From the NCBI GenBank assembly GCA_043764015.1, contig JAYUKY010000057.1:1-48579 (forward strand): a stretch of DNA of 48,579 bases, in the 5' to 3' direction. Shown here one piece after another: positions 42,018 through 42,057 of the stretch. The DNA comes from Raineyaceae bacterium. GTDB lineage: Bacteria > Bacteroidota > Bacteroidia > Cytophagales > Thermonemataceae. The notes under the pieces were generated by a model, which was given only the letters and a program-made list of their open reading frames with translations, ran no database searches and had not been told where the DNA came from. Both the position numbers and the translations under genes were made by a program. Numbering within the stretch: position 1 is the first letter of the stretch; each line of letters begins with the position of its first letter.

Positions 42018-42057
42018 TTTGTTTGCAATTTTGCAATTTTGCAATTTTGCAATTTTG
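42018..42057. repeat. Tandem octamer repeat (TTTGCAAT)x4 plus partial units, 55-90 bp upstream of the first small-peptide gene
   Basis: gtttg tttgcaat tttgcaat tttgcaat tttgcaat tttgcggg, seen directly. Followed by the small hairpin agtagaaatatctctact. Confidence 0.7.

Follow-up and report, generated by a model that had tools for sequence, protein, structure and literature searches.

The window, by which we mean the whole stretch of 48,579 nucleotides that was analyzed, contains an operon for secreted Cys-rich peptides, predicted lipoproteins and small paralogous proteins that is preceded by a promoter-plus-leader module of ~150 bp (Table 1). The module consists, in order, of palindrome P1, an A/T-rich linker, a tandem array of the octamer TTTGCAAT, GGGAG, a 5′ hairpin that constitutes palindrome P2, an unstructured leader and the ATG. 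As read directly from the + strand of the window, the array comprises 4.6 octamer copies without a mismatch, and Tandem Repeats Finder reports it with period 8, 100% matches and a score of 74, the highest among the 90 rows that it returned for the window. The array gives 29 consecutive period-8 matches, against a maximum of 15 and a mean of 10.7 in 60 dinucleotide-preserving shuffles, which places it well above chance expectation; it is a perfect tandem repeat long enough for slippage. The unit is palindromic at six of its eight positions and has a self-complementary core, TTGCAA, and the TTTG motifs of the array occur on the + strand only, in the same direction as the operon.

A preliminary description of this DNA had called attention to a tandem octamer array, and the array is indeed present; the start assigned to it, 42018, takes in a preceding half unit, GTTTG (42017–42021). 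Its position relative to the first peptide start codon, given earlier as 55–90 bp, proved essentially right at 52–88, with the 3′ end of the array 52 nt from the ATG at 42110. The array had also been placed directly behind the bidirectional terminator, which is inexact: it begins 80 bp beyond the terminator hairpin, and the 19-bp palindrome P1 and the conserved linker lie between the two.

Table 1. Features of the promoter-plus-leader module and of the operon that follows it (window coordinates).
Feature	Position	Strand	Basis or remark
Bidirectional terminator-like hairpin, ends the MVP-like gene	41908-41941	.	16-bp perfect stem and terminator scan
Palindrome P1, ATTTAGAATGATTCTAAAT = ATTTAGAAT-G-ATTCTAAAT	41968-41986	+	Upstream edge of the module; candidate regulator site
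A/T-rich linker, TTTATTATTTTCAAAAATAAACGCTCAAAAGTTTG	41987-42021	+	Conserved in octamer-type modules (alignment A2)
(TTTGCAAT)x4.6 array	42022-42058	+	5.6 copies in L001, 1.6-4.6 in paralogous modules
Candidate -33 element TTTG, supplied by the array, about -32..-29	42030-42033	+	Inferred from position relative to the predicted -7 box
Predicted -7 box CAATTTTG, 7/8 positions of TAnnTTTG	42050-42057	+	Inferred; consensus match
Palindrome P2, 5′-terminal hairpin AGTAGA-AATATC-TCTACT	42062-42079	+	Folds in every module copy
Leader GATTTTTAACATTCTAATTCCTTCAATAAT, nearly invariant, predicted unpaired	42080-42109	+	Alignment A2 columns and folding
Peptide 1, 69 aa, Sec-type signal, Cys-rich C-terminus	42110-42319	+	ORF; gene called in L001; alignment A1
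Peptide 2, 66 aa, peptide 1 family, Sec-type signal, Cys-rich C-terminus	42340-42540	+	ORF; gene called in L001; alignment A1
Hairpin with 17-bp stem, between peptide genes and lipoprotein gene	42557-42594	+	-21.6 kcal/mol, z -8.4
Two paralogous 414-aa predicted lipoproteins	42626-43870 and 43909-45153	+	ORFs
Two small paralogous proteins, 149 and 153 aa	45119-46093	+	ORFs; second with CxxC motif

Directly 5′ of the peptide cassette, at 39290–41770, lies a gene for an 826-aa homologue of the eukaryotic major vault protein (MVP), which matches the Pfam families MVP_shoulder (3.4e-27) and Vault_3 (2.3e-8). An inverted repeat at 41794–41911, with 38-nt arms and a core, GTAGAGACGTTGCTTGCAAC, that is perfect over 20 nt, is located between this gene and the terminator; it is unique within the window and may represent a MITE-like element or a structured RNA. 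In many intergenic regions of the window, imperfect arrays of heptamers (TGAGTTG, AGGTACG, ATTCACA and similar) form inverted pairs with an A/T-rich loop between them, as at 10677–10755, 20743–20826 and 29092–29170, and also at 7927–8051, 15523–15610, 17574–17643, 22725–22857 and 34334–34474. These pairs fold into hairpins with stems of ~30 bp, energies of −37 to −39 kcal/mol and z-scores of −7 to −9, and constitute a genome-wide repeat class reminiscent of the cyanobacterial heptamer STRR or of REP-like terminators. Elsewhere in the window, a tmRNA gene at 38565–38937 is recognized by Rfam (98 bits) and is not reported by ARAGORN, and a 1123-aa protein encoded on the − strand at 4552–7923 resembles the BREX PglX-type adenine methyltransferase (1e-27, below the curated cutoff) and is possibly a fused enzyme for restriction-modification or defence.

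Relatives of the cassette proteins were traced to ENA metagenome contigs, designated here by L numbers. The two peptides of the window belong to a family of secreted peptides of ~60–75 aa, which is represented in the window and in L002, L004, L024 and L026–L031; its members possess a nearly identical signal peptide (MKKKIV...) and Cys-rich mature parts that are unalignable, some of which have Gly as their last residue. Searches for these peptides matched neither a database family nor any literature. Among the cassette proteins, neither the peptides nor the 414-aa and small proteins matched a Pfam or NCBIfam family. The 414-aa lipoproteins are probably NHL/beta-propeller-like, based on NHL-type matches that are uniformly weak (a PDB sequence search among them), and their counterparts in paralogous cassettes match DUF4221 or DUF5128; the literature yielded no useful match for DUF4221, DUF5128 or NVEALA. 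A search of 5.8 billion proteins returned just five relatives of the 414-aa protein, its AlphaFold model was unusable (pLDDT 34), and the lipoprotein genes are ~79% identical. For the small CxxC protein, a thioredoxin-like similarity is at most hinted at by a non-significant Pfam match (Thioredoxin_2, E=0.12). The hairpin between the peptide genes and the first lipoprotein gene is conserved in a paralogous cassette of L002 (about 5925–5962), and its loop contains a perfect TAATTTTG box 50 nt 5′ of the lipoprotein start. This hairpin is likely an attenuator or terminator, and it may combine an attenuator with an internal promoter.

The module is not confined to this operon, and is placed before at least six distinct operons of one uncultured Bacteroidota organism, each coding for secreted Cys-rich peptides and, probably, for beta-propeller-like lipoproteins; in the different module copies the octamer is present in 1.6, 2.6, 3.6, 4.6 or 5.6 copies. 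On L002, a second scaffold of the metagenome that furnished L001, the ~150-bp module occurs three times, each time before a different peptide gene; every one of these modules is followed by a signal-peptide/Cys-rich peptide gene and then by a lipoprotein gene, one of the lipoprotein genes matches DUF5128, and a DUF4221 gene is found in the same cluster. The three L002 arrays have 4.6 copies (with one substitution, the last full unit being TTTGCAAA), 2.6 copies and 3.6 copies. The array of L026 has at least 2.6 copies, as the contig begins inside it, while L027, which encodes the same peptide, has only 1.6 copies of TTTGTAAT. In L024 and L025, P1, a P2-type hairpin and a near-identical leader are retained, and (TATTTTG)x5 followed by TATTTTTG takes the place of the linker and the octamers. 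Palindrome P1 is found in every module copy of this species (species 1; alignment A2), and its motif, TAGAA-N-TTCTA, is otherwise nearly missing from the window. Both P1 and P2 contain TAGAA...TTCTA, with the array situated between them, and the P2 hairpin of L027 shows a compensatory change from G-C to A-T. From the last TTTG to the ATG the sequence is near-invariant across module copies (alignment A2).

Two further observations concern the history of these modules. The peptide coding sequence is identical in the two samples represented by L026 (1–316) and L027 (383–691), and the differences between them, five mismatches and one indel, all fall inside the ~60-nt array and leader, a pattern that points to gene conversion, or to the swapping of modules, between promoters of paralogues. 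In addition, an extra module copy in L024 (2243–2304) has an array of only (TATTTTG)x1 and TATTTTTG, with unrelated sequence directly past the box and transposase genes adjoining; here an insertion sequence probably cut the promoter away from its operon.

At the locus of the window itself, the copy number differs between assemblies. L001 (BUSI22-1_SAMN19433757 scaffold_47, ENA) represents the same locus in another assembly, and over 10,954 aligned positions it shows 0 mismatches and a single 8-bp gap, which corresponds to an extra octamer in L001 (5.6 copies), a length difference that rests on two assemblies of a genome with at least six near-identical modules, so that mis-threading by the assembler is possible. 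The array that differs between assemblies is the longest uninterrupted one. Elsewhere the arrays were unchanged, between L002 and L003 (100% identical over 5.0 kb), between L002 and L023 (identical over 5.1 kb beyond a repeated junction element) and between L024 and L025 (100% identical over 2.1 kb); the identity of three arrays between assemblies indicates that the mutation rate is not extreme. A labile copy number, as had been surmised beforehand, is supported by the range of 1.6–5.6 among paralogous promoters and by the one unit that alone sets the two assemblies apart in 10.9 kb. A repeat of ~130 bp found at contig ends and junctions (window 1–131; L002 7108–7236, inverted, and 12291–12416) is joined to different neighbours by the assemblies, and in L023 it is the window's left end that is linked with the cassettes of L002.

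Related cassettes of a sister species (species 2) were found on five contigs (L004 and L028–L031), with a lipoprotein that is 68–69% identical. The species 2 module comprises the palindrome TTAAGCACTTAA, a (TTTTTTG)n array of ~5–10 units at a position equivalent to that of the octamer array, the perfect box TAAGTTTG and then the ATG, with a constant 93–94 nt from box to ATG. A second variable repeat, AAAATAATTG, is present there in 1–3 copies further upstream.

Where the promoter lies with respect to the array is suggested by comparison with known promoters of this phylum. [quoted passage not shown] A sigma-70 consensus scan was set aside as not applicable to Bacteroidota; that the window derives from this phylum is confirmed by a 1420-aa protein encoded in it, which has a T9SS type A sorting domain with a score above the curated cutoff. 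In the 8.3 kb of intergenic DNA in the window, TAnnTTTG was observed 42 times, where 14 ± 3.6 occurrences were expected (~3-fold enrichment), and it sits 32–75 nt 5′ of many start codons. Each array, in both species, terminates in a TAnnTTTG-like octamer. This box is CAATTTTG in the window, in L001, in L026 and in two of the L002 modules (L002b and L002c), CAAATTTG in the remaining L002 module (L002a), and a perfect TAnnTTTG in L027 (TAATTTTG), L024 (TATTTTTG) and species 2 (TAAGTTTG); position 1 of the window box is C where the consensus has T, and perfection is seen only in the paralogues. The distance of the box from the start codon is typical of TAnnTTTG boxes in the window, and in species 1 the G of the last TTTG lies a constant 50–52 nt from the ATG, across array lengths of 13–45 nt. 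The proposal that the array is located in the promoter is therefore most likely correct, given a −7-like box at its 3′ end that keeps this distance from the ATG in all copies.

From this placement we infer a transcription start at approximately A42062, ~5 nt past the G of the box and at the first base of the P2 hairpin. Relative to this predicted start, the G residues of the array fall at −5, −13, −21, −29 and −37, and a TTTG occupies −32..−29 whenever the array has at least 3.6 copies. It is missing in the 1.6-copy module of L027, and the element may accordingly not matter. Candidate boxes 5′ of the array vary from module to module, and this, together with the restriction of TTTG to the + strand, speaks against transcription from a point 5′ of the array.

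We propose that the array is a slippage-prone simple sequence repeat (SSR) in the core of a sigma-A-type promoter, and that changes in its copy number most likely bring about graded, heritable and reversible changes in the transcription of each cassette, a reading to which we assign a probability of roughly 0.55. That the octamer array tunes expression is probable from the differences in copy number among sister operons and between two assemblies. In this scheme, the last unit of the array would supply the −7 box, transcription would begin at the first base of the 5′ hairpin, and units further 5′ would put a TTTG near −33. The array would gain or lose units on its upstream side by replication slippage, which the self-complementary TTGCAA of the unit may promote. 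Given the self-similarity of the array and the position of the box within its last unit, a unit change should leave the distance from box to start as it is and should not break the core promoter; rather, it would alter the presence of TTTG near −33 (for which at least about 3.6 copies would be needed), the number of overlapping registers available to sigma-A, and the distance and helical face of P1 with respect to the start, by 8 bp or approximately three-quarters of a turn per unit. The outcome would be set independently for each cassette, with a clean on/off switch less likely. The center of P1 lies at −52, −63, −70, −78, −85, −86 or −93 relative to the predicted start in different copies. 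The possibility that P1 and the box share a fixed helical phase was considered and rejected, as the fractional turns range from 0.19 to 0.95 among modules; the lack of conservation fits tuning and irrelevance alike.

Other readings of the array can be weighed against graded tuning. It may be a neutral promoter microsatellite, in which a TTTG-N4-TTTG direct repeat seeded slippage within an unconstrained region, with no effect on expression. The free variation of array length and unit type next to a near-invariant sequence 3′ of the box, the unconserved helical phase of P1 and the richness of the genome in short intergenic tandem repeats are all consistent with neutrality. On the other hand, arrays have been kept, or have arisen independently, at the same promoter position with three unit types in two species, all of them maintain the TTTG periodicity on the coding strand, and their perfect repeats imply recent turnover and not decay; we consider a neutral array less likely than graded tuning, though still quite plausible. 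It is improbable that the array acts as a tandem operator, each TTGCAA octamer binding a dimeric repressor or activator cooperatively and the copy number setting the strength of regulation. The 6/8-palindromic unit, in 2–5 copies that overlap the core promoter, would be compatible with such an operator, and iterated binding sites for a regulator had been suggested in the preliminary description. However, this idea is disfavoured by the L024 and L025 modules, which share P1, the P2-type hairpin and a near-identical leader with the octamer modules and yet have (TATTTTG)n without TTGCAA, as well as by the (TTTTTTG)n arrays of the sister species, which likewise lack TTGCAA, by the TTTGTAAT unit of L027, which breaks the palindrome, and by the absence of an evident regulator gene in the cassettes.

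A classical phase-variable on/off switch, in which the repeat sets the spacer between the −33 and −7 elements and only one copy number is active, would be compatible with a perfect repeat in the promoter region that differs by one unit between assemblies. Nevertheless, it appears very improbable, since it is the last unit that provides the best −7 box and a TTTG recurs every 8 bp, which makes the spacing within the array independent of copy number; the repeat does not lie wholly between fixed promoter elements. The fixed TTTG at 42018–42021 would be 28 nt from the box with 4.6 copies or 36 nt with 5.6 copies, distances well beyond a plausible spacer, and is thus unlikely to be a −33 element. 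The earlier expectation that unit changes would alter the spacing of promoter elements is consequently not supported: with the box in the last unit and the motifs recurring at the repeat period, it is the upstream sequence alone that shifts. There is similarly very little to recommend a transcribed array, that is, a start further upstream, e.g. after AAAAGTTTG at 42014–42021, which would generate a (UUUGCAAU)n leader hairpin and thereby affect translation or the stability of the mRNA. The RNA of 42022–42112 does fold at −21.2 kcal/mol (z −3.6), but the upstream candidate box reads CTTG in L002c and L027 and is absent in L024 and species 2, whereas every module has the box at the 3′ end, and three module types have it in perfect form; moreover, the heptamer arrays are not self-complementary.

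In functional terms the element would fall into a known class, that of variable tandem repeats associated with promoters. In Mycoplasma gallisepticum, each member of the vlhA (pMGA) family has its own variable (GAA)n repeat in a shared 5′ region, and a single exact copy number is permissive; in Haemophilus influenzae, the hmw1A and hmw2A promoters contain 7-bp repeats, and expression is graded with repeat number. The present modules resemble vlhA in that a multigene family carries a variable repeat in the shared 5′ region of each member, although nothing here suggests a single permissive copy number, and vlhA and hmw encode surface proteins of host-adapted pathogens whereas the cassettes encode secreted peptides of an environmental or uncultured Bacteroidota organism. 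E. coli MetJ binds 2–5 tandem 8-bp, partly palindromic met boxes that overlap promoters, and the number of boxes varies among operons. The octamer array is comparable, with 2–5 tandem, partly palindromic 8-bp units over a core promoter, but unlike the met box its unit is not conserved across paralogous modules, and instead of one palindromic unit in all promoters, L024, L025 and species 2 use non-palindromic heptamers. With respect to Bacteroidota sigma-A promoters, the match of the array 3′ end to the −7 consensus and the TTTG near −33 are as expected; ordinary promoters of this kind have single motif copies, while here the motif occurs 2–6 times in perfect tandem.

A closer parallel in arrangement may be drawn with nadA of Neisseria meningitidis, in which a TAAA tract lies between operators for NadR and modulates transcription as its copy number changes their spacing (PMC3899988). 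In both cases a short tandem repeat, upstream of the promoter or overlapping it, has palindromic or operator sites on its two sides, here the palindromes P1 and P2. The unit is 8 bp here and 4 bp in nadA, however, the array here includes a promoter recognition motif, the phylum and promoter architecture are different, and P1 and P2 are candidate sites for an equivalent of NadR or IHF. The invertible promoters of the Bacteroidales (PMC8748976; PMC4747536) vary through recombinase-driven, site-specific inversion between inverted repeats. They occur in the same phylum and likewise provide variable promoters for surface or secreted products, stochastic, heritable variation being what we propose here, but the present system involves a slippage-prone repeat and neither an invertase nor flanking inverted repeats. 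Two traits of the present element are unusual, as far as its sequence can tell: the promoter motif of a phylum whose sigma factor is non-canonical forms part of the repeat unit, and a whole family of operons makes use of the element, in two species in parallel.

The 23-nt leader motif had 0 matches in GTDB species genomes, JGI metagenomes and IMG/VR, and the leader motif of species 2 had 0 matches in JGI metagenomes, from which it follows that the lineage is rare; the strain-level comparison covers ENA assemblies. A scan of 185,579 genomes for (TTTGCAAT)x3 found it in 17 places, 10 of them in Bacteroidota, mostly Prevotella, in unrelated contexts, and provided neither a homologous system nor a functional clue. 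In Prevotella (L008, L010, L012, L017 and L020), (TTTGCAAT)x3–4 lies beside long ATATAATATA-type A/T palindromes, sometimes in inverted pairs, and appears to belong to an unrelated repeated element. Rfam recognized no family at the module, with only sub-threshold hairpin-type matches in 41700–42700, BLAST found no counterpart of the region among plasmids and phages, and the literature on SSR contingency loci in Bacteroidetes yielded nothing useful.

As the sequence from the last TTTG to the ATG is near-invariant and the peptide cores cannot be aligned, the conserved part of this diversifying family can be seen in its promoter, leader and signal peptide. A conserved promoter, leader and signal combined with a hypervariable mature peptide is what one typically sees in toxins, bacteriocins or signals that undergo diversifying selection, and the module marks an undescribed family of cassettes that consist of a secreted Cys-rich peptide, a propeller-lipoprotein and a small CxxC protein. 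We suggest tentatively, and with considerable reserve, that hypermutable promoter repeats bearing the sigma-A motif control at least six peptide operons one by one, such that the repertoire would be expressed in a combinatorial, stochastic and heritable manner. If so, an SSR-based contingency system would operate in a phylum that is otherwise noted for phase variation driven by invertases, and would represent parallel evolution with different repeat units in two related species. Should copy number tune transcription, the module would offer a clear case of repeat-based promoter variation in the Bacteroidota, in which such variation is usually ascribed to invertible promoters, and, by virtue of a unit that carries the promoter motif, slippage would adjust the output of each operon while keeping its promoter intact.
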